In this document: one piece after another, positions 20,958 through 46,523 of the stretch
Position numbering within the stretch: position 1 is the stretch's first letter
Layout of the letters: each line of letters begins with the position of its first letter
Assembly: GCA_049322915.1 (NCBI GenBank)
Contig: JBMOPW010000039.1
Coordinates: 1 to 46,523, forward strand
Reading direction: 5' to 3'
From: Candidatus Zhuqueibacterota bacterium
GTDB taxonomy: Bacteria > Zhuqueibacterota > Zhuqueibacteria > Thermofontimicrobiales > Thermofontimicrobiaceae
DNA: 46,523 nucleotides
Made by a program: the position numbers and the translations under genes
Notes under the pieces: model-generated
The model's input: only the letters and a program-made list of their open reading frames with translations
Databases searched by the model: none
What the model was told of the DNA's origin: nothing

Positions 20958-21059
20958 TGCAGCGGATGTCCGTCCCATTCCACGAGCAGGATTCATGTTG
21001 CCGGGCGATGAAATGCCCGTCGCTCAATCGATACATCACTTTTCACGCTGATCTGAGAT

Positions 21060-22499: not shown

Positions 22500-22755
22500 G
22501 TGCATGATCCACGGATGCCGAAAGACGCCGGATCGATTTTTGGCGCTGCTCAGTGATCTTCAACTGGGGTGATGGCTGAATAGCGCGGTGCATCATTGAT
22601 TTCATTGGGAGCATGCGCAGCGAACGAGCCAAAGAATTCTGTCTGGCGCATCGTTCGTGGCGTCATTTCAGTCACACGGGGGGAACCGATTTCGGAACGA
22701 CTTTGATGATTCCACAGGAAAAAACTTGGCAAACTTACTTCGCTACATAGCATCC

Positions 22756-23952: not shown

Positions 23953-25107
23953 GCCGTAGGCCCCGCAATTGAAGAACACGACGAAATCGCCGGGTTCCAC
24001 CGGCTGCGAACATTCCACATTCATGGCCAGAATGTCCTGCGGCGTGCAGAGGCAGCCGGCGATGTCCAGCATGTATGTGGCAACCGGCGACCGATCCGAA
24101 TGGGCCAGAATATCCAGTTCAAAATTTCTCCGAATGATTTGCCCCATCCCGCCGGCAAGCAGGTAATTCTGATGCATGCCTCCATCGACAATGGCAAATT
24201 GCTTCGACCGAACCTGTTTTCGGTACAGGACTTTCGTGACGTAAATCCCGCTCTCGGCGACTAAGAATCGGCCGGGTTCCACAATGCGCCGGCAGCGATT
24301 CAGCAGCGAGTGGTACTCCCTGCGATGAAATAACTGATGAAGCGCCTGGCCCAACCTGTCCAGGTTCAATCTGTTTTGACCAGGAAAATAGGGGATGCCC
24401 CAGCCGCCGCCGAAATTGATCTTTTCCATAAGGAGCCCTGATGCCATTTCAAGACGTTGCGCCAGTTGGATAATGGTCTCAACGTTGACGGCGAGCGATG
24501 ACTCATCCAGCACCTGGGATCCGCTGTGGACGTGGATTCCGGTGAAATGGATTCGGCCCTGATTCTGTTTTATCCTGTCGAGACAGCGGAGCGCCTCTAT
24601 TTCATCGAGACCGAATTGCGTCTCCCCGGCCATCTTCAATCCTGACTTCACCTGACTCTGATCCGGATTCACCCGAACGCCAACATTGGGCAGACAATGA
24701 TGCTGCCGCGCGATCTGAGTAATTTTCTCCAGTTCGACGAAGTTTTCGATGTTGAGTGAACCGACGTTATTCTGAATGGCGTACTCAAGCTCATCGTCGG
24801 TTTTTCCCGGCCCGCTGAATTCGATGTTCACCGCCGGAATCCCATTTTCCAGCGCCGCTGCCAGTTCGCCGGCAGAAGCGACGTCGGCACCAACGCCGAG
24901 TTCCGCCATCAGCCTCAAAATCGCCGGATGCGGATTGGCCTTCACAGCGTAATGCGGGGAAAACAGTGCACCGAACCGTGCGAGAAATTCATGCACCCGG
25001 GCGCGAATGAGCGACGGAAAATAGAAATAGCCGGGCGTCGGATACTGCCGAAGGATGCGGAGCAGATTGGCCCGGTTGATGATGCTGTAAAAATCCTGTC
25101 TGGTCAT
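23890..25107 (-). CDS. Fold-type III PLP-dependent decarboxylase (LysA/BtrK-like; exosortase-system-associated type)
   Basis: HYAVKANP (PLP Lys), DVASAGE, GPGKT, HVHSGSQ, NFGGGWG, EPGRFLV, DGGMHQ, GCLCTPQD, and GAYGSTASPLNFLSHPRP. Confidence 0.88.
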   Translation of the reverse strand: MTRQDFYSIINRANLLRILRQYPTPGYFYFPSLIRARVHEFLARFGALFSPHYAVKANPHPAILRLMAELGVGADVASAGELAAALENGIPAVNIEFSGPGKTDDELEYAIQNNVGSLNIENFVELEKITQIARQHHCLPNVGVRVNPDQSQVKSGLKMAGETQFGLDEIEALRCLDRIKQNQGRIHFTGIHVHSGSQVLDESSLAVNVETIIQLAQRLEMASGLLMEKINFGGGWGIPYFPGQNRLNLDRLGQALHQLFHRREYHSLLNRCRRIVEPGRFLVAESGIYVTKVLYRKQVRSKQFAIVDGGMHQNYLLAGGMGQIIRRNFELDILAHSDRSPVATYMLDIAGCLCTPQDILAMNVECSQPVEPGDFVVFFNCGAYGSTASPLNFLSHPRPGEFFID

Positions 25108-26711
25108 GAGTACTTTTCCTCAAGCGCTGCGAATTGAATTTTTCCCGACGGAGTGCGCGGAAACGAATCGACGAACTCGATGCGTGTGGGTAACATGTAC
25201 GAGGGCAGTTTTGTCGAGAGATAATGGCTGAATTTGGCGCGATCCATGGGCATTGCTCCCTGCCATTGAATTTCTGCTATCAGTTCGGTTTCGCTTTCTT
25301 GCCTGCTGACCCCGAAAACAGCCGCATCTTTCACTTCGGGATGGTTCAAAATGACGTCAAGAATTTCTTTGGGATAAACGCGATTGCCTTTTACCTTGAG
25401 CATTTTGTCTCTTCGACCCAAAACATAAATAAAACCCTCTTCATCTATCGTCCCCATATCGCCGGTGAAAATAACGCTCTGGTCGAAAAGAACCGGTGGT
25501 TCCTGCATCGGATTTTTTCTCAGCTTGGCCTGCGTCGCGGCCGCGTCGCCCAGGTAGCCGGCCATCATTCCATCGCCGCGATGGATTATTTCGCCCGGTT
25601 CATTGGGCCGGCAGCGATTGCCCTGTTCATCCACAATGAAAATTTCAGTGCCGGCGACAGCGCGCCCCACTGAGTTGATTTTTCTATCGAAATCATTGGG
25701 TTTCAAAATACCGCTGCGGAAGGCTTCTGTTTGTCCGTACGTCTTGAAGATATTGACATTCGGGGCGAGGTCGCGCAGCCTGCGAAGCTGGTTTTCGGCC
25801 ATGCCGCCGCCTGAGATGGTGAAATATCGCACCTGCGACAGGCAGGACTTCACCTCGTTCGGATCATACGCCAGTAGCTCGGACCAGATGCTCGGCACGC
25901 CGGAAATTCCGGTAATGCGATAGGTCGCGATGGCACGGCAGATGTCCTGCGCCAGCCACGAATTGATAATGACGAGCTGTGCGCCGGAAAACAGGCTGGC
26001 GTACAATTGATTCAGCCCCACATCGAAGGAGAAGGGCAAAAGACTCAGTAGCCGGTCGCCTTGCGTCAGTTGAAAATCCTCGCATTCGGTGGTCACCCGG
26101 TTCAAAAGATCCTGATGGGAAATCATGACGCCTTTGGGCACGCCGGTGGAGCCGGAAGTGAACAGCAGCGCCAGCACATCCTGTTTCAGGAAAGGAGAGG
26201 TGGAGCGAAAACCGGCCCGGTCATCGGAGTCCGGCGCGATGGACTCGATGGCAGTGAATGTCCGCAATTTTTCCAGACAGGTGATATGAACCGGGGACCG
26301 GGGCTGAGCGTCGTAATGCAGGATTCGCGTGCGCGAAAGTTGGCCGGGCTGCAATTGCGACAGCCGTATCAATCCGGGATTGTCCACCAGCAAAATCGAT
26401 GACTGGCATAGTTCGACGCTGAATTGAATTTGATGAAGGCTGAGTTTGGGATTTAAACTGTAGAAGGCCGCGCTGTTTTTCAGAATAGCGAGCATGGCAG
26501 TGACGTGCTCAGGACTCCGCTGCATGAAAATACCGACGAACTGCCCCTGCCTGAGACCCAGGTTGCGCAGAACTTCAGCGAGATTGTCCGAAAAGGCTTC
26601 GAGCTGGCGATAGGTGACATCGATGCGTTTGCCCATTCCCATGTGCTGTGTCACAGCGATCGCATCGGGAATAGCTGCGGCAGTCGTTGCAATTCGTTTT
26701 AGGGCTGACAT
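25104..26711 (-). CDS. AMP-forming acyl/aminoacyl ligase (adenylation enzyme; exosortase-A-associated type)
   Basis: FTSGSTGVPKGV (A3), LPFSFDVG, YGQTEAFR, FTGDMG, GRRD, and RTPSGKI (A10). Overlaps the decarboxylase start by 4 nt (ATGA). Confidence 0.88.
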   Translation of the reverse strand: MSALKRIATTAAAIPDAIAVTQHMGMGKRIDVTYRQLEAFSDNLAEVLRNLGLRQGQFVGIFMQRSPEHVTAMLAILKNSAAFYSLNPKLSLHQIQFSVELCQSSILLVDNPGLIRLSQLQPGQLSRTRILHYDAQPRSPVHITCLEKLRTFTAIESIAPDSDDRAGFRSTSPFLKQDVLALLFTSGSTGVPKGVMISHQDLLNRVTTECEDFQLTQGDRLLSLLPFSFDVGLNQLYASLFSGAQLVIINSWLAQDICRAIATYRITGISGVPSIWSELLAYDPNEVKSCLSQVRYFTISGGGMAENQLRRLRDLAPNVNIFKTYGQTEAFRSGILKPNDFDRKINSVGRAVAGTEIFIVDEQGNRCRPNEPGEIIHRGDGMMAGYLGDAAATQAKLRKNPMQEPPVLFDQSVIFTGDMGTIDEEGFIYVLGRRDKMLKVKGNRVYPKEILDVILNHPEVKDAAVFGVSRQESETELIAEIQWQGAMPMDRAKFSHYLSTKLPSYMLPTRIEFVDSFPRTPSGKIQFAALEEKYS

Positions 26712-30022: not shown

Positions 30023-30931
30023 TTGAGAATCAAAAAAGGAATTTTGTTCTTGATACTTCTGGTGTCGGGAGTTACCCTGTATGGTCAGGAGCGCAGAATA
30101 AAACCTGGCGATGTCATCGAAATTATAGTCGCTGATAATGTCGCTTTGAGCCAGAGTGTGGTAGTTCGCTCCAATGGCACAGTGGAATATCCAACGCTCC
30201 AGGACCTTCCAGTTGATGGCATCACTTTGAACAGATTCCAGGAATTGCTGATCACGCAATTATCACGATTTTTGGAGACATCCCCGCTTGTCCTGGTTCG
30301 TTTTGGTGAGAGCTACCCGATACGAGTGACAGTTCTGGGCCAGGTTGTAATGCCCGGGTTGTACACGATAGCAAACACTGCCACTTTGCAGGGCGCGATC
30401 GGAGCCGCGGGAGGGTTAACTCCTGGAGCACAATTATCAAAGGTGAAACTAATCAGGGATAACAGCGGCAGCAAGGAAAATATCATCATCAACATGGAAA
30501 ATTTTTACAAGAATGGCGATCCATCCGCCTTGCCTTTGCTCAAAGAAGGGGATACAATTGTAATTCCTGGCAATCCACTGGCCACAAATGTCAAGGTGTT
30601 AGGATGTGTGGAAAATCCCGGCAGTTACGATGTGCTTTTTCAGACGACAATTCTGGATGTGATTTTCATGGCGGGCGGACCAACCGAAGATGCCAATTTG
30701 AAAAAGGTGAAAATTATTTCGCTCACCGGCCAGGATGCCCGGGATGTTAAAATAGATATTGATGAATTAATGCATTCAAAGACGTATATAAATATTCCAA
30801 TTGTTGTGCCGGGCGATGTGGTGTACATACCGAAGAAGAAGTTAAATTGGTCGGGTATTATGACTGTGATTCGGGATCTCACCGCTTTTGCGACCCTGTA
30901 TTATATCATCTATCGTTCGAGTGGTAGCTAA
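30023..30931 (+). CDS. wza: Polysaccharide export protein (Wza-like; Poly_export + SLBB domains)
   Basis: IKPGDVIEI, VRSNGTVEYP, two SLBB repeats (VLGQVVMPG...AGG, VLGCVENPG...AGG), and a C-terminal amphipathic helix. TTG start with RBS GAGG. Confidence 0.85.
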   Translation: MRIKKGILFLILLVSGVTLYGQERRIKPGDVIEIIVADNVALSQSVVVRSNGTVEYPTLQDLPVDGITLNRFQELLITQLSRFLETSPLVLVRFGESYPIRVTVLGQVVMPGLYTIANTATLQGAIGAAGGLTPGAQLSKVKLIRDNSGSKENIIINMENFYKNGDPSALPLLKEGDTIVIPGNPLATNVKVLGCVENPGSYDVLFQTTILDVIFMAGGPTEDANLKKVKIISLTGQDARDVKIDIDELMHSKTYINIPIVVPGDVVYIPKKKLNWSGIMTVIRDLTAFATLYYIIYRSSGS

Positions 30932-31069: not shown

Positions 31070-33310
31070 ATGAAGAATACAATGAACCCAAATTTTCAAG
31101 TACCTGTTACCGATTTTGAATCACAGTTGCAACAGATGGTTCAACAGGAAAAATCTATTTTTTATGATTACTTTCGGATAATACGTAATCGAAAATGGAC
31201 AATATTAATTTGCTTGGTTATAGCACTTATTCCAACGATTATTTGGAATCAACTATCAACGCCTATTTATGAAGCTGAAGCGATGATCATTTATGAAGAA
31301 CCGAAAGAATCAATGTTTGCTTTAGATGTCGGTCAACCGTTTTATAATCGAAGCGCCATTATTAATTTAACTGAACAGATCAAAAGTAGAACTCTCGCCA
31401 CGGAAGTTGCATTGTCTATGCCCGATGATATTGTGAATACGTTTAACTTTCCAGATGATCCCCCCCCGGGATTCACAAAGCATAGATATATTGCCGCGAT
31501 ATTGAAAAAGAACCTGGTTGTTAAATCTGTTCGTGGTGGTGAGATTTTGACTTTGAGTATCAGAACCAACCATCCTGAAAGTGCGAAGATGGCTATTAAT
31601 GGTTATATCGAGCGATTGATTGACTGGAATTTGAAAAAGAAACGCGCAGAAGTGACAAGCGTAAAGGATTTTGTTGAAAATCAATTGAGTGTATTTGAAA
31701 ACAAGTTGAACAAGGCGGAAGTCGCTCTGCAAGCGTACAAAGAAAAGAATGCGATGATTTCGCTGAGTGAAAGCTCCACGCAGATTCTTAGCCGAATGAC
31801 AGAGGCAGAGATTGCCTACAACCAAGCCAAAGCTGAACGAGAGGCATTGGAACAGAGAAGAAATTATATCGAAAAAAAGAAATCTGAAATGGCGCCAACT
31901 TTATCGATGCCTCAAAGTACGCGTTCTAAGGATTTGAAAGAGGAATTGGCGGGACTTGAAGAACAATATTCCTCTTTTCAACTACAACAAACGGAAGCGG
32001 ATCAACATGAGCGACTGGCTTTGCGAGACAAAATTGACCTTACAAAGCAGCAGTTGATTGCAGAATTATCACGTAATGCACAGCGAGAGAACTTATTAGA
32101 TCCTTTATCTCAGGGTAGAAGTTTGCTACAGGAATCGATAACTCTTGATGTCGACCTGGAAACTTACAAAGCGCGAGAAAATGGTCTAAAAAAAATATTA
32201 GAAGAGTATGAATTACAGTTACAATCACTTCCGGGACAGGAACTGCAACTCGCGCATCTCATCAGGGAAAAAGAGGTAAACGATAAAGTCTATTCAATAC
32301 TTCTTGAAAAACGGGAGGAAGCGCGAATCACTGAGGCAGCCAAGGTAGGTGATATTCAGATAATCGATCCTGCTGAACGGCCCATTCGTCCCAAACGACC
32401 CGATAAAACAATGAATTTAGTTATAGGATTTTTATCGGGTTTAGGATTGGGATTTATACTAGCGTTTTTGTTGAATTCCCTTGATACGTCTATAAAATCC
32501 CAGGAGGATATTGAAAGGTATATTAATTTACCAATCTTGGCGGCCATTCCCAGAATAAGCCAGAATGGAGTTTTGGCGATCAACAAGACCAGGCATTCAA
32601 AACAATTTTATTCCAATAAGCTATTATCCAATTTTGAAAATATCCCACATTTCTATGAGGCGTACCGTACTCTTCAATTGAATTTAGCATTTGCCAGTAC
32701 AGATCACAAAATTTCATCTATTATTTTAACAAGCGCTGGAGCGGGTGAAGGGAAATCGCTGACTGCCATTAATATGGCCCAAATGTTTGCTAAAACCGGA
32801 ACGAAAACAATATTGGTGGATTGCGATTTAAGGCGACCGATGGTTCATAAGATACTCGATTTGAAACAGGAACCAGGTTTGACCAATCTTTTGATCAATA
32901 AATCGACCGAATGGGAAAGTGTCGTCCAGAGGCTGAGCAACAGTGATCTTTCAATTATCACCAGTGGAACTTTGCCTCCCAATCCATCGGAAATGCTTTC
33001 ATCGCAGAGTATGAAAGACCTTATTGAAAAACTGAAAAATCACTCTGAACTACTTATCCTGGATGCTCCGCCAATCATTGCCGTAAACGATTCAATGATT
33101 CTCAGTAAGAATATCGATGGCGTTTGTTTTGTAGTGAGGTCCGAAAAAGCAAAACGGGACGCTGTTCAGCGAGCGAAAAGCATCTTACAAACACAGGGCA
33201 TAAAAATTTTCGGCGTAATATTGAATGATGTCAACCTGAAAAGTCAGTACGGTTATTACAAAGATTACTATTATTATTCTCACGATAAAAAAAAGAAACG
33301 TAAAGCGTAG
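31070..33310 (+). CDS. wzc: Polysaccharide co-polymerase / BY-kinase (Wzc/GumC)
   Basis: Two TM segments around a coiled-coil periplasmic domain, Walker A TSAGAGEGKS, VDCDLRRP, LPPNPSE, LDAPP, and C-terminal Tyr cluster YGYYKDYYYY. Confidence 0.93.
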   Translation: MKNTMNPNFQVPVTDFESQLQQMVQQEKSIFYDYFRIIRNRKWTILICLVIALIPTIIWNQLSTPIYEAEAMIIYEEPKESMFALDVGQPFYNRSAIINLTEQIKSRTLATEVALSMPDDIVNTFNFPDDPPPGFTKHRYIAAILKKNLVVKSVRGGEILTLSIRTNHPESAKMAINGYIERLIDWNLKKKRAEVTSVKDFVENQLSVFENKLNKAEVALQAYKEKNAMISLSESSTQILSRMTEAEIAYNQAKAEREALEQRRNYIEKKKSEMAPTLSMPQSTRSKDLKEELAGLEEQYSSFQLQQTEADQHERLALRDKIDLTKQQLIAELSRNAQRENLLDPLSQGRSLLQESITLDVDLETYKARENGLKKILEEYELQLQSLPGQELQLAHLIREKEVNDKVYSILLEKREEARITEAAKVGDIQIIDPAERPIRPKRPDKTMNLVIGFLSGLGLGFILAFLLNSLDTSIKSQEDIERYINLPILAAIPRISQNGVLAINKTRHSKQFYSNKLLSNFENIPHFYEAYRTLQLNLAFASTDHKISSIILTSAGAGEGKSLTAINMAQMFAKTGTKTILVDCDLRRPMVHKILDLKQEPGLTNLLINKSTEWESVVQRLSNSDLSIITSGTLPPNPSEMLSSQSMKDLIEKLKNHSELLILDAPPIIAVNDSMILSKNIDGVCFVVRSEKAKRDAVQRAKSILQTQGIKIFGVILNDVNLKSQYGYYKDYYYYSHDKKKKRKA

Positions 33311-33835
33311 GTAGCCGGCTTTATTTTCAACACCAGAATTTTTCATTCGCGCTGAATAACTGGTTGCTGTGCTTCGCGATGGAGTTCGAAACGGATGAAG
33401 TATACCGAGAACTTTTGCTCAGTGAAGAAACTCAACTTGACTGACAATTAAACTTCTGAATTTGGCTTATTGAAGTATCCTTCCCGATTGCAAGGTAACT
33501 TATCATTCCGTTTTAAAAATGTTGTGCAAAGCCTATACGATGATTGTATTGTATGTAGCGATGACTAGAAATTTCAATATCGCAGTATGTACTTTTATGT
33601 ATTGTTCATTCGAAGTGGTTTCTTTTGATTTGCATTTCTACAGCTACAAAGCACTTTGTGAGATTAAATCCTGATTCCTGACCTTTTTCGGTTTACTTGC
33701 CCATGTGACTGACGTGGCGGAGCTATCTACTACCATGTCTTATTGAGTCAGTTCCTTTTTCTTTCTCTCTCTGAAACCATCGCTGAATGGTTAAGGTCTT
33801 GGAAATTTTATTCACCTCAGTTAATGGTTCCCACC

Positions 33836-35170
33836 ATGCAAAAATTCTATAAAAATATCAAAAGCGTATTTGAAAGCCGGGCATCACGACTGATGCGATC
33901 CATGAATGGATCAGTCAAGAATCTTTACTCAGTGGAATCTTTTAAAAAACTTTTATTTATTGAAAAACGAAGGGCAGAACGTTCTAATGCCAGCTCTTCT
34001 TTAATTCTATTGAACTTTCGAAGATATGCTGAGACCATTCATAAAAATGGAAATTTATTTTTAAAGGATACGGAGTATTTGGTAAAATTAATTTGCACGA
34101 ATATCCGTGAAACCGATGTTGTGTGTCTCTATGATTGTCTTACAGTTTTTATTTTACTTCCGGATACGCGAGTCGAAGGGGCAAAAATCGCATGCAAAAG
34201 AATTGTAGAGCAATTGATCTTCGCCCAGAATAACTATTATTATATCAATGAATTGAATTATAATACGCTTGACATCGAGGTAATTTCTTACCCAACCCAC
34301 GATCGATTGAAAGAAGGCGAGGCCGAGTACCCTGGAACCAGGCCGTCTATTCATAAGCAAAATGTTTTCAGTGGAAGAAATGGATCAGTGGCACTTTTCA
34401 ACGTATTGTTGATACATAATAGTGAAAAGAACCTTGAATTTCGTCAGAGTTCCGTGAATTATGAATCAATAGCACTTCCGGTGTTAAATATGTTTTTTTG
34501 GGAGAACCATTTCATTTCAGTGTTTCATTCGTTCACAAAGAAATTCGCCAAGCGCGGAATGGACTTTGTTGGAGCGATTTTCTTGATTCTATTATTGCTT
34601 CCCGCTTTTCTCATTATTGGATTTTTGGTGAAAGTGACGTCTAAAGGTTCAATAATTTATAAGCAGATCCGAATCGGTCATAAGGGGCGATATTTCAAAT
34701 TCTATAAATTCAGATCCATGTTCCAAAATTGTGATCATCGAGTTCATCAGGAATATGTTAAAAATTTAATTCGTGGCAATTCAGAAGAAATTAATAATGG
34801 TACCAAGGACGATCCTTTTTTCAAAATTAACAATGATCCCAGAATTACTTCTCTTGGCAGGATACTGAGAATGACGAGTCTTGATGAACTGCCGCAACTG
34901 TTCAATGTTTTAAAGGGCGAAATGAGTTTAGTTGGACCGCGGCCCCCCCTACCTTATGAAATTGAAAATTATAAACCCTGGCATTTTCGTCGGATTCTGG
35001 AAGTGAAGCCTGGTATTACCGGGTTGTGGCAAGTCAACGGTAGAAATAAAACTACGTTTGATGAAATGGTGCGCATGGACATCCACTATGCTGAGAAATG
35101 GTCATTATTTTTGGATTTAAAAATTTTACTAAAAACAATTAAGGTGTTATTTGTATTTGATGGCAAATAA
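33836..35170 (+). CDS. Priming sugar transferase (Bac_transf phosphoglycosyltransferase) with N-terminal degenerate GGDEF-like domain
   Basis: C-terminal KRGMDF, YKFRSM, DPRIT, SLDELPQL, MSLVGPRP, and KPGITGLWQV. The N-terminal region aligns to the GGDEF fold with an RETD I-site. Start uncertain; the ORF is open from 33743. Confidence 0.88.
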   Translation: MQKFYKNIKSVFESRASRLMRSMNGSVKNLYSVESFKKLLFIEKRRAERSNASSSLILLNFRRYAETIHKNGNLFLKDTEYLVKLICTNIRETDVVCLYDCLTVFILLPDTRVEGAKIACKRIVEQLIFAQNNYYYINELNYNTLDIEVISYPTHDRLKEGEAEYPGTRPSIHKQNVFSGRNGSVALFNVLLIHNSEKNLEFRQSSVNYESIALPVLNMFFWENHFISVFHSFTKKFAKRGMDFVGAIFLILLLLPAFLIIGFLVKVTSKGSIIYKQIRIGHKGRYFKFYKFRSMFQNCDHRVHQEYVKNLIRGNSEEINNGTKDDPFFKINNDPRITSLGRILRMTSLDELPQLFNVLKGEMSLVGPRPPLPYEIENYKPWHFRRILEVKPGITGLWQVNGRNKTTFDEMVRMDIHYAEKWSLFLDLKILLKTIKVLFVFDGK

Positions 35171-35223
35171 TAAAAATTTGATAAGCTCTTCTTACTTATA
35201 CCGCATGAATGAGGAGAAATGGA

Positions 35224-36252
35224 ATGAAGAAATTTAACGTTGCTGTGATCGGTTGCGGCTATTGGGGGCCAAATTTAATACGAAATTTCTATCAACTGTC
35301 AACGTGTAACATGGTCGCATGCTGTGACCTGTCCGAAAATAATTTGAAACGAATGAAAAATTTATATCCAGCTATCACGACGATCACGGATTATCAGGAT
35401 CTGATATCAAATCCTGATATTGATGCCGTGGCTATTGCAACGCCCGTATTTTCACATTGGGAACTGGCAAAGAAATGCTTGGAGGCGAATAAGCACGTTC
35501 TCATCGAAAAACCAATGGCATCAAATTCCGAGCAATGCATCGATTTAATTGAAACGGCAAAAAAATTCAGTCGAGTATTGATGGTCGGACACACTTTTGA
35601 ATACACTGCTGCTGTGAACAAGGCGAAGGAAATTGTGGATAGTGGTGAGCTGGGAGAAATTTATTACATCAGCAGCACGCGAGTCAACCTGGGTCTGTTT
35701 CAACCTGATATCAACGTGATCTGGGACCTGGCGCCGCATGATATTTCCATTATTTCCTATATGTTGAACGAAAGTCCAATCGGCGTTGGAGGTCAGGGGA
35801 AAGCCCACTTTAATAAAGAAATCGAAGATGTCGCTCAGATCACCTTAAATTACCCTAATGGAACAATCGCATTCATTCACAACAGTTGGCTCGATCCCGA
35901 CAAAATTCGAAAGACGACCATAGTTGGAAATAAAAAGATGCTTGTATACAATGATATCAGCCCCAATGAGAAAATAAAAATTTATGATAAAGGGGTCGAA
36001 GCCCCACCATATTATGATACCTACGCTGAATTCCACTTTTCATATCGCTACGGAGATATTTACACCCCGAGGATTGAAGAGTACGAGCCACTAAAACGCG
36101 AGTGCGAGCACTTTTTGGATTGTATTCGAGATTCAAAAACCCCCAAAAGCGACGGCTACTCTGGTTTAAGGGTTGTTTCTATTTTAGAAGCCGCAAATAA
36201 ATCCATGCGAAACGGCGGCGGTCAGCAGCCGATTGTTGCATATTACGCATGA
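35224..36252 (+). CDS. Gfo/Idh/MocA family oxidoreductase (WbpB/WlbA-like sugar dehydrogenase)
   Basis: VIGCGYWG Rossmann motif, HVLIEKP, and WDLAPHD. RBS GAGGAG precedes ATG 35224. Confidence 0.88.
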   Translation: MKKFNVAVIGCGYWGPNLIRNFYQLSTCNMVACCDLSENNLKRMKNLYPAITTITDYQDLISNPDIDAVAIATPVFSHWELAKKCLEANKHVLIEKPMASNSEQCIDLIETAKKFSRVLMVGHTFEYTAAVNKAKEIVDSGELGEIYYISSTRVNLGLFQPDINVIWDLAPHDISIISYMLNESPIGVGGQGKAHFNKEIEDVAQITLNYPNGTIAFIHNSWLDPDKIRKTTIVGNKKMLVYNDISPNEKIKIYDKGVEAPPYYDTYAEFHFSYRYGDIYTPRIEEYEPLKRECEHFLDCIRDSKTPKSDGYSGLRVVSILEAANKSMRNGGGQQPIVAYYA

Positions 36253-36346
36253 CGGGAACCGTTCCCACCTCGATAATTACCCAAAATAAAACAAGGTCTC
36301 ATTGTAAAGATGAGGTAATCAATACTATTTTTGAAAGGGATCTGAA

Positions 36347-36817
36347 TTGAGCCTGAGAAAGATCGCAGATGATGTAAAGCTTGGCAATAATGTGAAAATC
36401 TATGACTTTGTCAATCTTTATGGCTGTGAAATTGGAGACAATACAAAAATCGGCGCCTTTGTTGAAATTCAAAAAGGCGTGAAAATTGGTAATAACTGTA
36501 AGATTTCCAGCCACACATTTATTTGTGAAGGTGTGACCATCGAAGACAATGTGTTTATTGGGCACAATGTCACTTTTATAAATGATCTCTATCCTCGCGC
36601 GACCTCCGAAATGGGTGAACTCCAAACAGAAGCTGATTGGGTGTGCATTCCGACATTGATAAAAAAAGGAGCCTCCATTGGATCGAGTTCGACATTATTG
36701 TGTGGCATTACTGTTGGTGAAAATGCCATGGTTGGCGCAGGGAGTGTAGTGACAAAGGATGTCGCGGATGGGATCGTAGTGGTCGGGAATCCTGCGAGGG
36801 TAATAAAAACGAATTAA
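36347..36817 (+). CDS. Hexapeptide-repeat N-acetyltransferase (WbpD/WlbB-like)
   Basis: LbH repeats, FINDLYPRA, and VGAGSVVTKDV...VVGNPAR. TTG start. Confidence 0.88.
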   Translation: MSLRKIADDVKLGNNVKIYDFVNLYGCEIGDNTKIGAFVEIQKGVKIGNNCKISSHTFICEGVTIEDNVFIGHNVTFINDLYPRATSEMGELQTEADWVCIPTLIKKGASIGSSSTLLCGITVGENAMVGAGSVVTKDVADGIVVVGNPARVIKTN

Positions 36818-37215: not shown

Positions 37216-38091
37216 ATGCCCCCAAAGTATGCAATAATAACACCGGCAAGAAATGAAGAGAAGTATATTGATTCAACCATAGCATCGGTTCTCTCCCAAA
37301 CTGCAAAGCCGGCAATCTGGGTCATAATCGATGATCACTCCACCGATAGAACTCGGGAAATCATTGATGCTGCACGAGATGAATTTCCATGGATACAATT
37401 ACTTGAAAATGATATTGAGGCGGAACGAGCGCCAGGAGCTAAGGTTGTTAGGTTATTTAATTTGGGCATTGATTCACTGAAGGATGAATATGATTTCCTC
37501 GTGAAGCTCGATGCAGATTTATCGTTTCGCCCTGATTATTTCGAAAGACTTTTTCTTGAATTTGAACGAGATCCCCATCTGGGAATCGCGGGAGGCTACT
37601 GCCAGAATCAAGATGGGCAGGCATTGAAAACTGAATGGACGCCTGAATATCACGTTCGCGGGGCAACGAAAGTGTATCGAAAAAAGTGTCTTTCGGATAT
37701 AGGAGGATTGATCCCGGTCATGGGCTGGGATGGTCTGGATGAAATGAAAGCGCAGATGTTAGGCTGGAATACAAAAAGTTTTAAAGATCTTCTCATTCTA
37801 CATCTACGGCACACCGGCCAAGCTACCGGCAAAATTCGATTCGCATGGCTCTGGGGAGTATCATCACATTATATGGGTTATGATCCAATATTTTTTTTAA
37901 TTCGATGCATGAGAAATATCAAACGACGTCCCTATCTGCTATTTAGTATGACCATGGTTTTTGGCTACCTTTACTCTTTGGTTGTTCGCAGCAAGCAAGT
38001 GGATGATAAAAATTTAATCCTATACATTAGAAAATTCCAAAGAAGGCGCCTTTTTTCTAACCTCAAATTTATCAATAGAAAAAATATCTGA
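37216..38091 (+). CDS. Glycosyltransferase family 2
   Basis: IITPARNEE, IDDHSTDRT, and KLDAD (DxD). Confidence 0.92.
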   Translation: MPPKYAIITPARNEEKYIDSTIASVLSQTAKPAIWVIIDDHSTDRTREIIDAARDEFPWIQLLENDIEAERAPGAKVVRLFNLGIDSLKDEYDFLVKLDADLSFRPDYFERLFLEFERDPHLGIAGGYCQNQDGQALKTEWTPEYHVRGATKVYRKKCLSDIGGLIPVMGWDGLDEMKAQMLGWNTKSFKDLLILHLRHTGQATGKIRFAWLWGVSSHYMGYDPIFFLIRCMRNIKRRPYLLFSMTMVFGYLYSLVVRSKQVDDKNLILYIRKFQRRRLFSNLKFINRKNI

Positions 38092-38338
38092 GAATTTGAT
38101 TAGGTGGCTACTTGTCTTAATGACTCAATAATTTGGGCTATTTGCTATTTGTTGGAAATAATCAAAAGCTCCTTCCTTTATAACATCTGTATTTCCTCCT
38201 CAGTTCTGTGATAATCATACCGTATCTATCTTCACAATTGATTTCATCATTTCATCATCGATTCTATGAATTAAGTGCTGGTTAAATAATAGTTACTTTT
38301 AGCTGAATCCCCCCATAAATTTTTAAGAACAAATAACT

Positions 38339-39649
38339 ATGGAGAAACTTGGCAAGAAGAACCCATTGAAAATTGCTATTCTAGGAGCATCACTTGCAAC
38401 AGAAAATATGGGAGTTTCTGCTTTAGCTGCTTCACTAATAAAAATAATCCTTGAAGTCAATCATGACGCAGAAATTTCTTTAGTCATGGGAAGCCGTTCA
38501 TCTGCTTCACACTGGTTTAATGTTAATGGCAAAACGGTTGAAGTGAAAATTATTAACCATCGGTTATCTCTGCACTCTGAAATTAGCAAACATTTGGTTT
38601 GGATTTTCATTTTAGCAATTCTTCAGGCACTGACTCCATTTCATTTCTGGCAAAAAAAAATAATCCACTCAAATCTTTGGCTTCAAACAATCTGGAATAG
38701 TGATTTTGTCGGGGATATACGTGGCGGAGATAGTTTTAGCGATATCTATGGATTAAAACGGTTCCTTAAAGGTGTCGTTCCCATTTTTATTTTATTGCTG
38801 TTAAAAAAAGATTTCGTTTTATTGCCTCAGACATACGGGCCTTATCAACGTGTCCTCTCAAAAAAAATAGCAAAGTTCATTTTAAGAAGGGCCAGTACTA
38901 TCTACGCAAGAGATAAATTTAGCGTGGAATTAATCAAACAGATCATTGATGACCCACAACTGCAATGCAAAATTCGCTTTTGCCCAGATGTGGCTTTTAA
39001 ACTTGATGCGATTCCTCCTGAAAAAATTGACTTGGCTCCTCCATTGGAACAAGATGCAAAGAGTACGCTTATCGGAATCAATGTGAATGGTCTTGTATAT
39101 CATGGCGGATACTCACGTGATAATATGTTTCATTTAAATTTCAATTATAAAATTTTTCTACAGCAATTGATAGAGGCATTTCTGGAAATTGAAAATTGTG
39201 AGATACTTCTAATTCCCCATGCCTTTGCAAAACCAGGTAACGTGAATAGTGATCCTGAGGCTTGCCAACAAATATTTGAGAATAATTTACAGGCACATGT
39301 GGGTAAAATTCATCTTGTTAATGGCAAGTATAATCAAAATGAAATCAAAGGTATCATTAAACTTTGTGATTTTTTCATTGGGACCAGAATGCACGCCTGT
39401 ATTGCTGCGATGTCCATGGGAATTCCAACTATAAGTGTCGCCTATAGCGGAAAATTCAAAGGAGTTTTTGAGTCTATAGGATTAGGGGAGTGGGTGGTCG
39501 ATGCACGGAAGGAAACACTTGCTTCATCACTGGATTTTGTTATGGATAAATTTATGCATAGAACGCAGCATTTAGATGACATAAGACAGAGAATTGACGA
39601 AGCTAAAAGTCTGACAATCACTGAATTCAGAGGAATGCTTTCGAATTAA
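38339..39649 (+). CDS. Polysaccharide pyruvyl transferase family protein (WcaK-like)
   Basis: NMGVSAL, GGDSFSDIYG, LPQTYGP, ARD, CPDVAF, and GTRMHACIAAMS. Confidence 0.88.
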   Translation: MEKLGKKNPLKIAILGASLATENMGVSALAASLIKIILEVNHDAEISLVMGSRSSASHWFNVNGKTVEVKIINHRLSLHSEISKHLVWIFILAILQALTPFHFWQKKIIHSNLWLQTIWNSDFVGDIRGGDSFSDIYGLKRFLKGVVPIFILLLLKKDFVLLPQTYGPYQRVLSKKIAKFILRRASTIYARDKFSVELIKQIIDDPQLQCKIRFCPDVAFKLDAIPPEKIDLAPPLEQDAKSTLIGINVNGLVYHGGYSRDNMFHLNFNYKIFLQQLIEAFLEIENCEILLIPHAFAKPGNVNSDPEACQQIFENNLQAHVGKIHLVNGKYNQNEIKGIIKLCDFFIGTRMHACIAAMSMGIPTISVAYSGKFKGVFESIGLGEWVVDARKETLASSLDFVMDKFMHRTQHLDDIRQRIDEAKSLTITEFRGMLSN

Positions 39650-39676
39650 CATCGCGTCGTTGGTGAGATTGTTACA

Positions 39677-40942
39677 ATGAAATTACGCTCTATTAAAAAC
39701 ATTCAAGACATTGTCGATTGGGGCTTGTGCTGTGGCTGTGGGGCGTGTTACTTTACATGCACCAGAGGAGCAATTCAGTTAATTAATGTTATCTCGGTAG
39801 GGATACGACCGATCGTCGACAATTCACTGTGCATAAGCGATTGTACCAGTCTCAATTATTGCCCGGGCTATTCGGTGGATGCACAAGGTATGAGACAATT
39901 TAACAATGGATCTGAAGATAATATTTATTTTGGTCCAACACTTGAAATTTGGGAAGGATATGCAGCGGACCCTGATATCCGCTTTTCGGCATCATCGGGG
40001 GGTGCATTATCGGCACTTTCACTATATTGCTTAGAAAAAGAAAATATTCAATTTGTCCTGCACACAGGGATGAATCCTGACGTTCCCTGGGAAAATAATA
40101 CAATAACAAGTAGGAATAGGGTTCAATTATTAGCGCGAACAGGTTCGCGTTATTCTCCATCATCGCCGTGTGACAGTATCCGACTGATTGAAGAAAATGA
40201 TGAACGATGCGTTTTTATCGGTAAACCGTGTGACGCATCTGCGATGATGAGCATCAGAGAAGAGTATCCCCAAGTGCTTGAAAATGTGGCTTTAATGCTT
40301 ACTTTTTTCTGCGCCGGGGTTCCTAGCACTCTGGGCACGCTTGAATTGATTAGAAAAATGAGTGCTAATGAGCAGGAAATATCCAATGTGCGCTATCGAG
40401 GCAAAGGATGGCCAGGTGATTTCCAATTGGATTTTAAGGACAATCGTGATCAGAAAGGTATGACCTATTTTGATAGCTGGCATCAACTTCAAAAATTTCG
40501 CTCGCTGCGTTGTCATTTGTGCCCGGATGGTTTGGGGCAGATTGCTGATATTTCTTGTGGAGACGCCTGGTATAAATATTCTAAAGAAAGCAAGAGTTTA
40601 GGTGAATCGCTGATATTAGTCCGGACAGAAAAAGGAAGGGAATTCCTTCATCGGGCGATGGAGGCAGGGTATCTTATTGCTAAAAAATCAAATGCTTCGA
40701 ATGTCATTAACTCACAAGGATTGATTGGGCGAAGAAAAGAATTATTTGGAAGATTAGTCGCTCGATGTATATTTTTTTTACCTATCCCCAACTTCGCAGG
40801 TTTTGAATTATATAAATCCTGGAAAAGTTTAAGCATGCTTAAAAAAATTTCAAATGTCCTTGGATCGATACGGCGCATTCTGTTGAAGGGGCTGTGGCAT
40901 AAAAATCGTTCGGGCGCTGTTATAAAGAATTTGTCAAGGTGA
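39677..40942 (+). CDS. FrhB/FdhB (coenzyme F420 hydrogenase beta subunit)-like Fe-S flavoprotein
   Basis: N-terminal CCGCGAC...C ferredoxin motif, SSGG, GSRY, FIGKPC, FFCAG, YRGKGWPG, RCHLCPD, and ADISCGDAW. Confidence 0.87.
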   Translation: MKLRSIKNIQDIVDWGLCCGCGACYFTCTRGAIQLINVISVGIRPIVDNSLCISDCTSLNYCPGYSVDAQGMRQFNNGSEDNIYFGPTLEIWEGYAADPDIRFSASSGGALSALSLYCLEKENIQFVLHTGMNPDVPWENNTITSRNRVQLLARTGSRYSPSSPCDSIRLIEENDERCVFIGKPCDASAMMSIREEYPQVLENVALMLTFFCAGVPSTLGTLELIRKMSANEQEISNVRYRGKGWPGDFQLDFKDNRDQKGMTYFDSWHQLQKFRSLRCHLCPDGLGQIADISCGDAWYKYSKESKSLGESLILVRTEKGREFLHRAMEAGYLIAKKSNASNVINSQGLIGRRKELFGRLVARCIFFLPIPNFAGFELYKSWKSLSMLKKISNVLGSIRRILLKGLWHKNRSGAVIKNLSR

Positions 40943-40946
40943 AAAT

Positions 40947-41921
40947 GTGATTGCTGCCTCAGTTATCATCGTGAATTGGAATACAAAAGAAATGCTGTTA
41001 TCCTGCATTGATTCAATATATCAGCATTCCTCCGATATTGAATTTGAAATCATTGTTGTAGATAATGATTCTACAGATGGTTCACAACATGCAGTGAAGA
41101 AACAATTCCCAGGAGTAAAGCTCATTTGCAATGATAAAAATGTCGGATTTGCCAGAGCAAACAATATTGGTATTCGCGCAAGTAGTGGTCGTTATGTATG
41201 TCTTGTCAATTCAGATATAGAAGTATTGGATAATGTAATTTTTAAATTGGTCTCTTTTTTAGAAAGCAATGCTCGTGTCGGTATTGTGGGGCCGAAAACA
41301 GTGAACCCTGACTTTTCAACACGTTACAATTGCAGGGAATTACCAACAGTTAGAAATGCGTTTTTTCAAGCGATTTTTTTTGACACACTATTCCCTTCAG
41401 TGAAAATATTCCGCGGCAGGACAATGTATTCATTCGACTACAATCAAATACTCCCCGTTGAAGTATTGTCGGGATGTTTTCTGGTAGTGAGAAATGAGGT
41501 GATTAAAAAAGTTGGCCTTTTGGATGAAAATTTTTTTATTTATGGGGAAGACGTAGATTGGTGTAAACGTATTTCGGATGCTGGTTGGGAGATTTTTTTC
41601 TATGGAGATACACAGGTTATTCATTACGCAGGATCGAGTTCGTCAAAAAAGAAAATTAGGTTTTCGCTGGAACGGTTAAAATCTGATTTATATTTTTGGA
41701 AGAAACATCATTCGATCCTTGAAAGAGCACTTTTTATTTCAATTATATATTTGAAATTTATCATACGCCTCATTGGTTGGACCCTCGTATACGTTGTTAA
41801 ACCATCAAAAAGTAACGTGTCCAATATCATGAGAAGCTACTTGCTTCAAACGATTTGGCTAACCTGGTTTCGGAAATATAGCCCAGCAGAATTTTTAGAC
41901 TTTCAGAAAATTAAAAATTGA
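40947..41921 (+). CDS. Glycosyltransferase family 2
   Basis: IIVNWNT, VVDNDSTDGS, NVGFARANN, VNSD, and FIYGEDVDWC. Confidence 0.92.
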   Translation: MIAASVIIVNWNTKEMLLSCIDSIYQHSSDIEFEIIVVDNDSTDGSQHAVKKQFPGVKLICNDKNVGFARANNIGIRASSGRYVCLVNSDIEVLDNVIFKLVSFLESNARVGIVGPKTVNPDFSTRYNCRELPTVRNAFFQAIFFDTLFPSVKIFRGRTMYSFDYNQILPVEVLSGCFLVVRNEVIKKVGLLDENFFIYGEDVDWCKRISDAGWEIFFYGDTQVIHYAGSSSSKKKIRFSLERLKSDLYFWKKHHSILERALFISIIYLKFIIRLIGWTLVYVVKPSKSNVSNIMRSYLLQTIWLTWFRKYSPAEFLDFQKIKN

Positions 41922-41959
41922 TATCTCACCAATTCTATTATTAGCTCCAGCAGATTTCA

Positions 41960-43060
41960 ATGGTACGATCGCCTACCGATAAAAACGGAATTCTTTCTGA
42001 AATAGACATAGTCCCACTGAGGGAAGCGGATCTGCAGGATGTTGCTGACCTCATACAGGCGATGCATCCAGTATCTCAGGATATATTGTTATTGAGATCC
42101 CATAGCAGAGACTATTATCACTGGATGTATTATCAAAATCCTGCCGGTAATGCTTTTGTTTTTGGCGCGAGGCATGAAGGGAGATTGATCAGTTGTTTTG
42201 CCATGGCCCCAAAATGGTTTAAAATTGACAGGAGCGAATTGTTGTGCGGCAAAACAATGGACATGTTCACCCACCCAGATTATCAAGGACTAGGGTTGAT
42301 GAATATTTTAGCCTCAAAAGTATTTGAAACAGCACAAAAATCTGGTATCACATTTTGGTTTGTAACTCCGTCAAAGAATTCCTACCCAATTTTCCTGAAT
42401 AAATGGCAATATGTCGAGAGCTTTGAATTAACCTACCGGTTTTCTGTATTGAATTTTAAGCCATTGCTTGAAAAATTAATTACACCAAGTGCATTTAGTC
42501 GAATTATTGGTACGATGATAAATGCGACAAGAAGTATGAATGTGCTACCAAAGAATTCTATCAAGCAGATTGAAGTTCATCCTGTGAATGAATTTACAGA
42601 AGAAGTCGATATTTTGTGGGCCAATTTTCATTTGAACCATCCAGTCATACAAATTCGCAATTCGAAGTATTTAAACTGGAGATATTTGGCCAATCCAGAT
42701 TCGTATGAAGTGTATGATTTTAAAAAAGCTGGAGCGCTTATTGGCATTATTGTATTAAAACAGACTATTCGCAATGGCCTAAGAATCGGTGAAATAGTCG
42801 ATTATCTATTTCTGGATAACAATAAACAAATCCTTCGAATGATGCTAATATGGGCGAAGAGGCATTTTCAAAAAGCGGGGTGCGCTGTTGTACAATGCTG
42901 GGTTATTAACTCATCATTGATGGAAAAGAAGATTATGAATGCTGGTTTGAAAAAAAAACGAAAGCAGCTAAAAATATTATTAAGTCCAAACGTTCCTTCC
43001 TCCTCTGTCTATGACAAAAATAATTGGTTCATAACTCAAGGTGATGGGAATGATATCTAA
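41960..43060 (+). CDS. GNAT family N-acyltransferase (tandem GNAT-like)
   Basis: THPDYQGLGL acyl-CoA-binding motif and YLNWRY. Located inside the EPS locus. Confidence 0.78.
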   Translation: MVRSPTDKNGILSEIDIVPLREADLQDVADLIQAMHPVSQDILLLRSHSRDYYHWMYYQNPAGNAFVFGARHEGRLISCFAMAPKWFKIDRSELLCGKTMDMFTHPDYQGLGLMNILASKVFETAQKSGITFWFVTPSKNSYPIFLNKWQYVESFELTYRFSVLNFKPLLEKLITPSAFSRIIGTMINATRSMNVLPKNSIKQIEVHPVNEFTEEVDILWANFHLNHPVIQIRNSKYLNWRYLANPDSYEVYDFKKAGALIGIIVLKQTIRNGLRIGEIVDYLFLDNNKQILRMMLIWAKRHFQKAGCAVVQCWVINSSLMEKKIMNAGLKKKRKQLKILLSPNVPSSSVYDKNNWFITQGDGNDI

Positions 43061-43212
43061 TTGATTTTGACACCAATGGTTGTGTTTTTACTAAATGAAT
43101 CTTAACAGAACGGCCCAGCAATAGATATTAACAGTGTATGCTCTTTTTGCTGTTAAATAGACAAATTGTTTACAGTCCTTTGATTGATAAAAATTTTTTA
43201 TTAAAAGGTAAG

Positions 43213-44388
43213 ATGCGTAGAGTCTGTGTAGTTGTTTTTTCATATTTCCCAGATGACCCTCGAGTTAAGAGAGAGACGGACGCATTGGTTCAAGAAAAGA
43301 TGCAAGTGGTCGTACTTTGCCTGTGTCACAAAAATGAGAAAAGGGAAGAGTATGTTCATGGCGCGCGAATTATTCGTATGAACTTACAACGGAAAAGACA
43401 TAGCAAGTTTCGATATCTTTTTGAATATTTTGCATTCATATCGTGGGCAACGATAAAAACTATTCGTTTGTCATTCACTCGAAAATTCAATTTAATGCAT
43501 ATTCATAATATGCCCGATTTACTAGTGATCTCAAGTGTCTGGCCCCGTATATTTGGGGCCAAAGTGATTCTTGATTTACATGATCCCATGCCTGAAGTAT
43601 TTATGTCGAAATATAATATTGATCGCTCACACGTCGCTATTCGATTTCTTGAATTACTGGAGCGTTTTTCAATTCGATGTTCTGATATCGTTCTGACCCC
43701 GAACATTGCTTTTAGAAAATTATTTATCGCACGCGATTGTCCGCCAGAAAAAATATTTATTATTATGAATTCCCCTCAGAATGAAACATTTGAATCGGCA
43801 AGGGCAAGTGTAGCAGAAGATTTTAATCTGAAGGACAGAAGATTTAAACTGATGTATCATGGCACTATTGTGGAACGGCATGGACTTGATTTAGCCCTTG
43901 AGTCAATTGCCATATTAAGGGAAAAGATACCTATGATATCTTTTCATGTTTTTGGTTCGGGTGATTGCTTTGTTAAGAAATTTTTATCATTGATAAAGGA
44001 ATTGATGCTAGAAGACATCGTGGTTTATCATGGTTTCGTTCCATTAAAGAGAATTGCCCAAATAATAAAGTTTATAGATGTTGGTATAATACCAAATCGT
44101 CTGACCCCATTTACCGATATCAATTTGCCGACGAGAATTTTTGAGTATTTATACCAAAAAAAACCGGTGATTGCTCCAAAAACCCAAGGAATACTTGATT
44201 ATTTTGATGATGATTCATTATTTCTATTCAGGCCAGGATGTGTGGACAGTTTGACAGAAACAATCACAAAAGTGTATGAAGACGTTACGAATCTGAAGAG
44301 AGTCGTTGAACAGGGTTACGGAGTCTATTGCAGGCATTGTTGGGATATCCAGAAATCAAATTTTATAAGATTAATCGATAGAATTTAA
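43213..44388 (+). CDS. Glycosyltransferase family 4
   Basis: DPRVKRE, HIHNMPD, DLHDPMPE, YHGTI, and LPTRIFEY. The ORF is open from 43138, with the likely start at 43213. Confidence 0.9.
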   Translation: MRRVCVVVFSYFPDDPRVKRETDALVQEKMQVVVLCLCHKNEKREEYVHGARIIRMNLQRKRHSKFRYLFEYFAFISWATIKTIRLSFTRKFNLMHIHNMPDLLVISSVWPRIFGAKVILDLHDPMPEVFMSKYNIDRSHVAIRFLELLERFSIRCSDIVLTPNIAFRKLFIARDCPPEKIFIIMNSPQNETFESARASVAEDFNLKDRRFKLMYHGTIVERHGLDLALESIAILREKIPMISFHVFGSGDCFVKKFLSLIKELMLEDIVVYHGFVPLKRIAQIIKFIDVGIIPNRLTPFTDINLPTRIFEYLYQKKPVIAPKTQGILDYFDDDSLFLFRPGCVDSLTETITKVYEDVTNLKRVVEQGYGVYCRHCWDIQKSNFIRLIDRI

Positions 44389-46369: not shown

Positions 46370-46523
46370 TGGAATTGGAATTTTCCTCTAAATTTCTTAT
46401 ATTAAAAAAAATCAAACAGGAGGAAAATCCATGGCTAATAAAAGACGAACATTTACACCGGAACAAAAAGTAAAAATATTAAAAGAACACTTACTCGACC
46501 ACAAACCTGTTTCTGATATTTGC
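46370..46523 (+). mobile_element. Left end of a probable IS3-family insertion sequence
   Basis: TG-initial candidate IR TGGAATTGGAATTTTCC at 46370, followed by an RBS and a transposase-like ORF. Confidence 0.55.
46431..46523 (+). CDS. Transposase OrfA (HTH_Tnp_1-like), truncated by the window end
   Basis: AGGAGG RBS. Translation MANKRRTFTPEQKVKILKEHLLDHKPVSDIC has the RRxFTxExK pattern of IS3-family OrfA. Confidence 0.75.
   Translation, partial: MANKRRTFTPEQKVKILKEHLLDHKPVSDIC

Follow-up and report, generated by a model that had tools for sequence, protein, structure and literature searches.

A degenerate GGDEF domain with a conserved I-site, fused to a small priming phosphoglycosyltransferase, as a candidate c-di-GMP receptor at the start of glycan synthesis

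The degenerate GGDEF domains of PelD and PopA are receptors for bis-(3′-5′)-cyclic dimeric guanosine monophosphate (c-di-GMP), and Listeria PssE and Bacillus YdaK are similar degenerate GGDEF receptors linked to exopolysaccharide (EPS). A small monotopic phosphoglycosyltransferase (PGT) attaches the first sugar-1-phosphate to a polyprenyl-phosphate carrier. According to PMC12802240, the reference list of which includes PelD as a c-di-GMP effector, the control of synthase-type pathways by c-di-GMP is well described, whilst post-translational control of Wzx/Wzy-type pathways is poorly understood. The same source describes the EpsW-EpsZ pair of Myxococcus xanthus, in which a phosphorylated response regulator acts on the initiating PGT of a Wzx/Wzy pathway, and it refers to a survey of PGT fusions (O'Toole, Imperiali and Allen, PNAS 2021) as listing regulatory domains, receiver domains included. 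WbaP is described in PMC10942596 as carrying four extra membrane helices and a nucleotide-sensing accessory domain inhibited by uridine monophosphate (UMP), and the phosphorylation of CapM is given there as a further form of control at the PGT step. The holdfast glycosyltransferase HfsJ of Caulobacter crescentus, which serves an exported adhesin polysaccharide, is described as bound and activated by c-di-GMP (PMC9980756). Here we describe a gene from a 46,523-nucleotide stretch of Candidatus Zhuqueibacterota DNA (GenBank assembly GCA_049322915.1, contig JBMOPW010000039.1, positions 1 to 46,523 of the forward strand; the whole stretch is referred to below as the window) in which a degenerate GGDEF domain is fused to a small monotopic PGT. 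We propose that this N-terminal domain is a c-di-GMP receptor that gates glycan initiation. Sequence conservation and analogy with PelD and PopA point to c-di-GMP binding, for which we estimate a probability of about 0.6, and to a change of PGT activity.

The fusion protein consists of the N-terminal GGDEF-like domain, a linker of about 70 residues modelled with low confidence, and the small monotopic PGT (coordinates of all features are given in Table 1). The mechanical open reading frame (ORF) on the forward strand, 33743..35170, opens with TTG and would encode 475 amino acids. However, the first residue of each of the three closest homologues (444 amino acids) falls at M32 (ATG 33836), where they already resemble the window protein; similarity is thus present upstream of M54, at which the stored gene call for the protein (P0001, 422 amino acids) begins. 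ATG 33836 is therefore probably the start of the gene and TTG 33743 too long. The 31 extra codons have no support from homologues and fall inside a gap of about 525 bases (33311-33835) that separates wzc from the likely start of the fusion. An initial annotation, made from the sequence, had quoted the peptide correctly, but its residue numbering, counted from the TTG, is probably too long. Two numberings are used below: ORF numbering counts from 33743 and M32 numbering from 33836. A scan of the whole window against Rfam at gathering thresholds, the gap upstream of the fusion included, gave 0 matches, and hence no c-di-GMP riboswitch or other known RNA is seen in that gap.

The PGT core looks intact. 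Bac_transf (PF02397) was matched at ORF residues 270-470 with an E value of 1.1e-65 (220.9 bits, cut-off 27), and TIGR03025 with an E value of 2.4e-83. The NCBIfam polyprenyl glycosylphosphotransferase models were matched over their C-terminal 190-200 positions only, and the protein scores under the NCBIfam subfamily cut-offs for EPS_sugtrans, WbaP and WcaJ, models which expect a large N-terminal part. In the PDB, the solved relatives of the core include chains of WbaP (E about 1e-46) and of the PglC type (E about 1e-34). A single strongly hydrophobic stretch lies ahead of the core (residues 247-265 in M32 numbering, score 3.09), with a marginal one near the C-terminus, and D381, E382 and P399-R400-P401 (ORF numbering) are invariant in 11/11 relatives. 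We take the Pro-containing helix, D381-E382 and P399-R400-P401 to be the re-entrant helix, catalytic dyad and PRP motif known from the PglC literature on monotopic PGTs. The family match, the re-entrant-type helix and the Asp-Glu pair were thus all found. One hydrophobic stretch together with the core motifs therefore indicates a PGT of the small kind, which lacks the accessory domain and the four extra helices of the WbaP type.

The window protein matches Pfam GGDEF (PF00990) with an E value of 5e-4 and 20.3 bits (cut-off 23.8), over residues 61-186 and positions 9-136 of the 161 in the hidden Markov model; against NCBIfam TIGR00254 it reaches 20.8 bits (cut-off 37.4). Among members of the fusion family, P0042 (47.4 bits), P0048 (45.4), P0261 (37.6) and P0244 (34.2) stand above the Pfam cut-off. 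PDB sequences were searched with a profile, A2, made from the N-terminal parts of ten members of the family. This gave 22 matches at E<=10, the best being 3ign (E 2.9e-6), and all 12 with E <0.2 are diguanylate cyclases, GGDEF-domain proteins or SadC GGDEF fragments, entries labelled 'Uncharacterized protein' being identified as SadC through the Foldseek listing. When A2 was aligned by hhalign with twelve canonical GGEEF domains (A5), the probability was 99.35% (E 6.4e-21, 134 columns, same register); the members of A5 are all ordinary GGEEF domains, but they were picked from proteins that A2 had matched and are therefore not an independent sample.

The structural model agrees with these alignments. 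AlphaFold was run on 238 N-terminal residues with a 73-row alignment that held no GG[DE]EF sequence, and the mean predicted local distance difference test (pLDDT) score was 76.9. For residues 11-150 the means of 10-residue blocks were mostly 83-95, with lower values of 75-78 at residues 71-80 and 131-140. The modelled elements are a helix, a strand, two helices, a beta hairpin, a helix and a strand (H33-50, E54-60, H62-67, H72-88, E95-98, E103-108, H113-133, E146-152; M32 numbering). Foldseek returned 62 PDB matches to this model at E<=0.001 (E from 2.9e-6, prob 1.00). All those listed are GGDEF domains (SiaD, WspR, PleD, GcbC, YfiN, DosC, FimX and others) and several of the structures hold bound c-di-GMP. 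Single-domain entries superpose with a root mean square deviation of 2.3-5 Å over about 130 columns, and 6khu reaches a template modelling score, by target, of up to 0.74 (2.3 Å, 128 columns). In both the Pfam match and the AlphaFold model the domain ends after beta-4, the C-terminal helix and strands of canonical GGDEF being absent. Taken together, the profiles and the model place the N-domain in the GGDEF family, with a predicted GGDEF/palm-type fold that is shortened at the C-terminus. A GGDEF fold match had been set beforehand as a test that could refute the proposed c-di-GMP role, and the AlphaFold model, its Foldseek matches and the hhalign probability all returned one. In the Protein Atlas, the clusters to which residues 1-200 lead are small and unnamed, and 13% of their members carry GGDEF.

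The active site of the domain has been lost whilst its I-site has been kept. Read from the sequence, the order is RETD, five residues (VVCLY), DCLTV and FILLPDT. As the initial annotation had it, DCLTV occupies the position of GG(D/E)EF. Moreover, the beta-1 strand has LLNF in place of the Asp-containing (D)xD of canonical domains, the first metal-binding Asp being replaced by Asn. With neither the GG(D/E)EF loop nor the metal-binding Asp of beta-1, the domain is, on its sequence, catalytically dead; residual cyclase activity was considered and rejected, as the motifs are lost. In the alignment of A2 with 3ign, a GGDEF domain with bound c-di-GMP, R-E-T-D falls on R-Q-S-D and five variable residues ('denvi') fall on GGEEF; the hhalign alignment likewise sets RETD on Re-D of the canonical domains. 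The sequence and both registers bear out the earlier placement of RETD five residues upstream of the A-site position. R153 (ORF numbering) presumably occupies the position of the third I-site arginine of PleD (R390). The motif EKRRAER, invariant in 11/11 relatives, aligns with ExxRAxR of solved GGDEF domains. The alignments thus indicate that the I-site triad is kept, as RxxD on strand beta-2 and an Arg or Lys on helix alpha-3.

Conservation of RxxD across the fusions had also been named in advance as a test. A sample free of N-domain bias was obtained by searching with ORF residues 262-475 only (the PGT domain); of the 8000 proteins scored, 7491 had E<=1e-40. The best 120 were listed; leaving out the window's own protein, 119 remain, and the I-site region could be aligned in 114, the other five being short, N-terminally truncated entries of 277-312 amino acids. 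RxxD is found in 113/114 of these best relatives, chosen with no reference to the N-domain, and GG[DE]EF in 0/114. At the former active site the sequence varies freely, and even the commonest 5-mer is seen just 6 times. At the third I-site position R is found in 41 and K in 67 (R/K 108/114), and all three positions of the E/R/R pattern of ExxRxxR are kept in 100 of the 105 relatives in which they could be aligned. The most conserved columns of the N-domain are D94, R49, E43, R91, T111, R46 and F36 (M32 numbering). Since nearly all of the best 120 align, almost the whole clade of closest PGT relatives carries the N-domain. The clade comprises long forms of ~435-445 amino acids, the type of the window protein, and short forms of ~349-390 amino acids with a shorter linker. 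Its members so far come from uncultured bacteria, the few source names being KSB1, Calditrichota, 'Cytophagia' and one labelled Hodarchaeota archaeon. A freely drifting A-site, an invariant RxxD and a basic residue on the next helix are the pattern expected of a GGDEF domain that is kept only for its I-site.

The same data bear on whether the N-domain has a role at all. It could be an evolutionary remnant on an otherwise ordinary, constitutive priming transferase, and the weak GGDEF score of the window protein and the long, poorly conserved linker would suit such a history. However, relatives with 27-30% N-domain identity keep E43, R46, R49, R91, D94 and T111 at 98-100%. At such divergence this indicates strong purifying selection, which is not expected of a remnant, and we regard this explanation as highly improbable.

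Another sample came from searching 1.84 billion representatives with the A2 profile. E values of <=0.001 were reached by 10185 proteins, of <=1e-10 by 119 and of <=1e-30 by 16. A PGT C-domain is present in 47 of the 160 stored matches (46 besides the window's own protein). In these 46 fused proteins the PGT-proximal N-domain has a degenerate A-site in every case and RxxD in 44, and RxxD is present in 32/32 single-domain full-length fused representatives. RETD is rewarded by the profile itself, however, which biases this sample, and every canonical cyclase matched by A2 likewise shows RxxD. The two fused exceptions are tandem-domain proteins, the first domain of which has RxxD. Two or three degenerate GGDEF-like domains precede the PGT core in some relatives of 500-630 amino acids (P0042, P0048, P0053, P0057, P0073, P0085, P0126, P0128, P0244 and P0261), and most of the repeats keep RxxD. 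Amongst the nearest A2 matches with no PGT domain, P0040 and P0043 have two GGDEF-type domains followed by HD/HD_5, with at least one of the domains degenerate.

Several observations weigh against a c-di-GMP receptor. The window protein alone falls under the curated GGDEF cut-offs of both Pfam and TIGR00254. The N-domain is without the last roughly 25 positions of the GGDEF profile, so that the context of the pocket differs from that in solved receptors. Lys outnumbers Arg at the third I-site position (67 vs 41 of 114). The window ORFs scanned showed no gene for a diguanylate cyclase, a phosphodiesterase or a PilZ protein. The carriers of the fusion are uncultured, and species-representative genomes yielded no more than 4 loci, each of them from a metagenome-assembled genome (MAG). 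Finally, ExxRxxR and LLPDT are conserved as strongly as RxxD and both are general GGDEF features, and therefore the conservation could reflect the fold or an interface, not a ligand site.

This last point leads to a different role for the dead domain, as a protein-protein or self-association module with no nucleotide ligand. Such a module might anchor the PGT on Wzc, on a glycosyltransferase or on an active cyclase, or might dimerise the enzyme, its motifs being kept for the interface or the fold. That ExxRAxR and LLPxT recur in solved GGDEF domains is consistent with this, and the relatives with tandem N-domains (P0042, P0048, P0244, P0261) would suit scaffolding. However, the five A-site residues drift while the R and D five residues upstream are 99-100% conserved, which is the pattern expected if the I-site, and not the whole surface, is under selection. 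Moreover, the sole relative that has lost the Arg of RxxD (P0233, EEHD) has lost the third basic residue too, having Met in its place. A large proportion of active GGDEF domains lack RxxD, so that the motif is not needed for the GGDEF fold. With this in mind, we consider a purely interacting module to be unlikely.

The lysines at the third position bear on which ligand may be bound. An I-site that binds another nucleotide (another cyclic dinucleotide, pGpG or (p)ppGpp) and relays that signal to the PGT would fit both the Lys for Arg exchange in 67/114 relatives and the shortened domain. Furthermore, one fold match, 9g85, is by its entry title PleD with c-di-GMP and ppGpp, suggesting that GGDEF proteins can hold other guanine nucleotides. 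Nevertheless, every ligand-bound I-site among the fold matches listed holds c-di-GMP (3ign, 5euh, 2wb4, 6zxm) and no feature pointing to another ligand was seen; a different nucleotide is, in our judgement, improbable.

If the N-domain is indeed a c-di-GMP receptor, rising c-di-GMP would occupy the I-site of this cytoplasmic domain, and binding would alter PGT activity either by way of the helix that joins the linker to the membrane helix or by pairing of domains. The biofilm messenger would thereby be coupled to the first step in making repeat units of the neighbouring polysaccharide, which is exported by Wza/Wzc. c-di-GMP activates PelD, Alg44 and BcsA, and by analogy with other c-di-GMP-controlled polysaccharide systems the direction here is likely to be activation rather than inhibition. 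The linker offers one possible route: some 70 poorly conserved residues (pLDDT <50 at residues 155-227 of the full-length model, with helices from 213 on) are followed by a conserved helix, ALPxLxxFFWxxQ, leading to the membrane helix, through which a signal may pass. In a second possible route, c-di-GMP would bridge two N-domains via the conserved Arg of ExxRxxR, presumably the secondary I-site position of PleD and WspR. A complex prediction between the N-domain (residues 20-160) and the linker helix with the PGT core (205-444), both entered as alignments, gave scores of 0.16 and 0.15 against a mark of 0.32 and counts neither for nor against the proposal; two c-di-GMP were included in this prediction, outside the score.

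A wider reading is that a whole clade of PGTs has a built-in c-di-GMP receptor gating the first committed, carrier-lipid-consuming step, with no partner protein. A c-di-GMP dimer would here join the RxxD and R/K of one domain to the ExxRxxR Arg of another, and thereby turn a normally monomeric small PGT into a dimer. Bridging by a c-di-GMP dimer follows the pattern of PleD and WspR. We offer this clade-wide version tentatively and hold it to be rather doubtful.

The genes next to the fusion point to polysaccharide export. The outer-membrane polysaccharide export protein (OPX, Wza) and the polysaccharide co-polymerase (PCP-2a, Wzc) adjoin the fusion gene, and the oxidoreductase and acyltransferase that follow it (35209..36817) are probably for nucleotide-sugar modification. 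Species-representative genomes were scanned with N-domain patterns containing EKRRAER and IRETD, which makes the scan unusable for counting RxxD conservation. Its only 4 loci are all on MAG contigs, two being too short or partial for context. The order Wza-Wzc-fusion-GFO oxidoreductase-hexapeptide transferase recurs in the other two, L001 (57% N-domain identity; source label 'Cytophagia') and L002 (32%), with Wza two genes upstream of the fusion and Wzc directly upstream in each. At 13120-15075 of L002 there is a DegT-type aminotransferase fused to GT2 (651 amino acids); the window has no DegT gene at the corresponding place.

The pathway had initially been called Wzx/Wzy-type. Wza and Wzc do stand beside the gene, but no candidate for Wzx or Wzy was found in the window: no Pfam flippase or polymerase family is present in the glycan cluster, and a six-frame hydropathy scan (ORFs >=200 amino acids, >=4 hydrophobic segments) gave MBOAT only. 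The designation therefore rests on the Wza/Wzc pair and the PGT and not on wzx or wzy, which may lie outside the window. At about 46430-46523 (+) the start of an ORF resembles, by eye from its translation, the helix-turn-helix of an IS3-type transposase. It may be that the glycan cluster is broken off at this point, which could explain the missing wzx and wzy. A 433-amino-acid ORF at 44565-45866 (+), at the end of the glycan cluster, was considered as Wzy and rejected, having one N-terminal hydrophobic segment and looking secreted. It has a signal-like N-terminal segment and no Pfam match, and could, at a guess, be a secreted polysaccharide-active enzyme.

Beside the glycan cluster, at 19599-26711, is a gene set resembling a Dlt-type acylation system, which may decorate the polysaccharide with an amino-acid-derived group. 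Elsewhere in the window, a GH52 glycoside hydrolase (1037 amino acids, 1927-5040, -) and an S8 subtilase (1606 amino acids, 9430-14250, -) both end in a type IX secretion C-terminal sorting domain (Por_Secre_tail). Taken by themselves, these domains suggest a source in or near Bacteroidota, in line with the 'Cytophagia' label of L001.

Table 1. Positions of the fusion gene, its parts and the surrounding genes in the window.
Feature	Position	Strand	Evidence
Degenerate-GGDEF/PGT fusion gene	33836..35170	+	444 aa from probable start ATG 33836; ORF list, homologue starts, Pfam
GGDEF-like domain	33914..34300	+	ORF residues about 58-186; Pfam, AlphaFold, Foldseek, hhalign
EKRRAER motif (ExxRxxR), first helix	33962..33982	+	Family conservation
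RETD (RxxD, I-site register)	34106..34117	+	cgt gaa acc gat; five residues ahead of former GGDEF
DCLTV replacing GG(D/E)EF	34133..34147	+	Sequence; register from 3ign and canonical-domain alignments
R153 (AGA), third I-site position	34199..34201	+	Sequence
Linker, then helix into membrane helix	34301..34549	+	pLDDT, homologue consensus
Monotopic PGT core (Bac_transf)	34550..35152	+	Pfam, TIGR03025, PDB matches, hydropathy, invariant residues
Hydrophobic re-entrant-type helix with invariant Pro	34550-34639	+	Hydropathy, alignment
DE pair of PGT core	34883-34888	+	Invariant D381, E382; GPRPP motif also in core
Wza-like outer-membrane polysaccharide export protein	30023..30931	+	Poly_export and SLBB domains
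Wzc-like polysaccharide co-polymerase with C-terminal P-loop (tyrosine-kinase type) domain	31070..33310	+	Wzz, GNVR, ParA/CbiA/AAA_31
GFO/IDH/MocA oxidoreductase	35209-36252	+	Pfam
Hexapeptide acyltransferase	36347-36817	+	Pfam
Rest of glycan cluster: GT2, pyruvyl transferase, FrhB-like, GT2, GNAT, GT4	37216..44388	+	Pfam
FemAB/GNAT-like protein, weak phosphopantetheine-attachment match	19599-20957		Pfam
MBOAT	21060-22499 (21057-22496 in the hydropathy scan)		Pfam, hydropathy
GDSL-like protein	22657-23952		Pfam
PLP (pyridoxal phosphate)-dependent Orn/DAP-type decarboxylase	23890-25107	-	Pfam
AMP-binding enzyme	25104-26711	-	Pfam

Cell-wall and surface-glycan pathways draw on the same undecaprenyl phosphate and nucleotide sugars, which makes the priming step a logical decision point. 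If the proposal is true, a PGT that carries its own I-site receptor would bring second-messenger control of glycan initiation into one polypeptide and would be a new output class for c-di-GMP signalling. Moreover, as nearly all of the best 120 PGT-domain relatives carry the domain, the family is large and the proposal would reach beyond this one gene to many environmental bacteria. Our literature search turned up no report of GGDEF fused to a PGT, nor of a PGT acted on by c-di-GMP, although the survey of O'Toole et al. (2021) may list the architecture. Automatic annotation already pairs PF02397 with PF00990 in some relatives, and a GGDEF domain is named in one of the source names.

Comparison with the described systems shows which parts are shared. 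With PelD of the Pseudomonas aeruginosa Pel system the fusion has in common a dead, degenerate GGDEF domain, a kept RxxD I-site and, as proposed here, a post-translational link between c-di-GMP and polysaccharide. However, receptors of the PelD type are separate membrane proteins that serve synthase-type machineries, whereas here the domain is fused to a priming PGT within a Wza/Wzc cluster and, unlike theirs, lacks the C-terminal part of the GGDEF fold. PelD was absent among the sequence and fold matches listed (A2 against the PDB; Foldseek). The fusion thus resembles the PelD-type receptors but is not one of them. PopA and PleD of Caulobacter share RxxD five residues ahead of the GG(D/E)EF position and an Arg on the following helix, and PleD chains are among the A2 and Foldseek matches. 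PleD, however, is an active cyclase in which the site serves product inhibition, PopA acts in localisation and protein targeting, and neither carries a glycan-synthesis enzyme.

On the enzyme side, the Bac_transf core, the re-entrant-type helix, the DE pair and PRP are shared with PGTs of the PglC and WbaP types. PglC has no accessory domain, whereas the accessory domain here is a soluble dead GGDEF. EpsW-EpsZ is alike in the post-translational control of an initiating PGT, but EpsW is a separate receiver protein acting on a large PGT, where the present protein would have a fused second-messenger receptor. HfsJ is alike in the direct control of a glycosyltransferase by c-di-GMP, but is presumably not a priming PGT and presumably has no GGDEF-type receptor domain. 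The initial annotation had set control of the first step apart from the synthase step at which such control is usually described. As its source presents it, HfsJ is a precedent for direct c-di-GMP control in such a pathway. What would be new here is c-di-GMP control at the priming enzyme itself, by way of a receptor fused to it.

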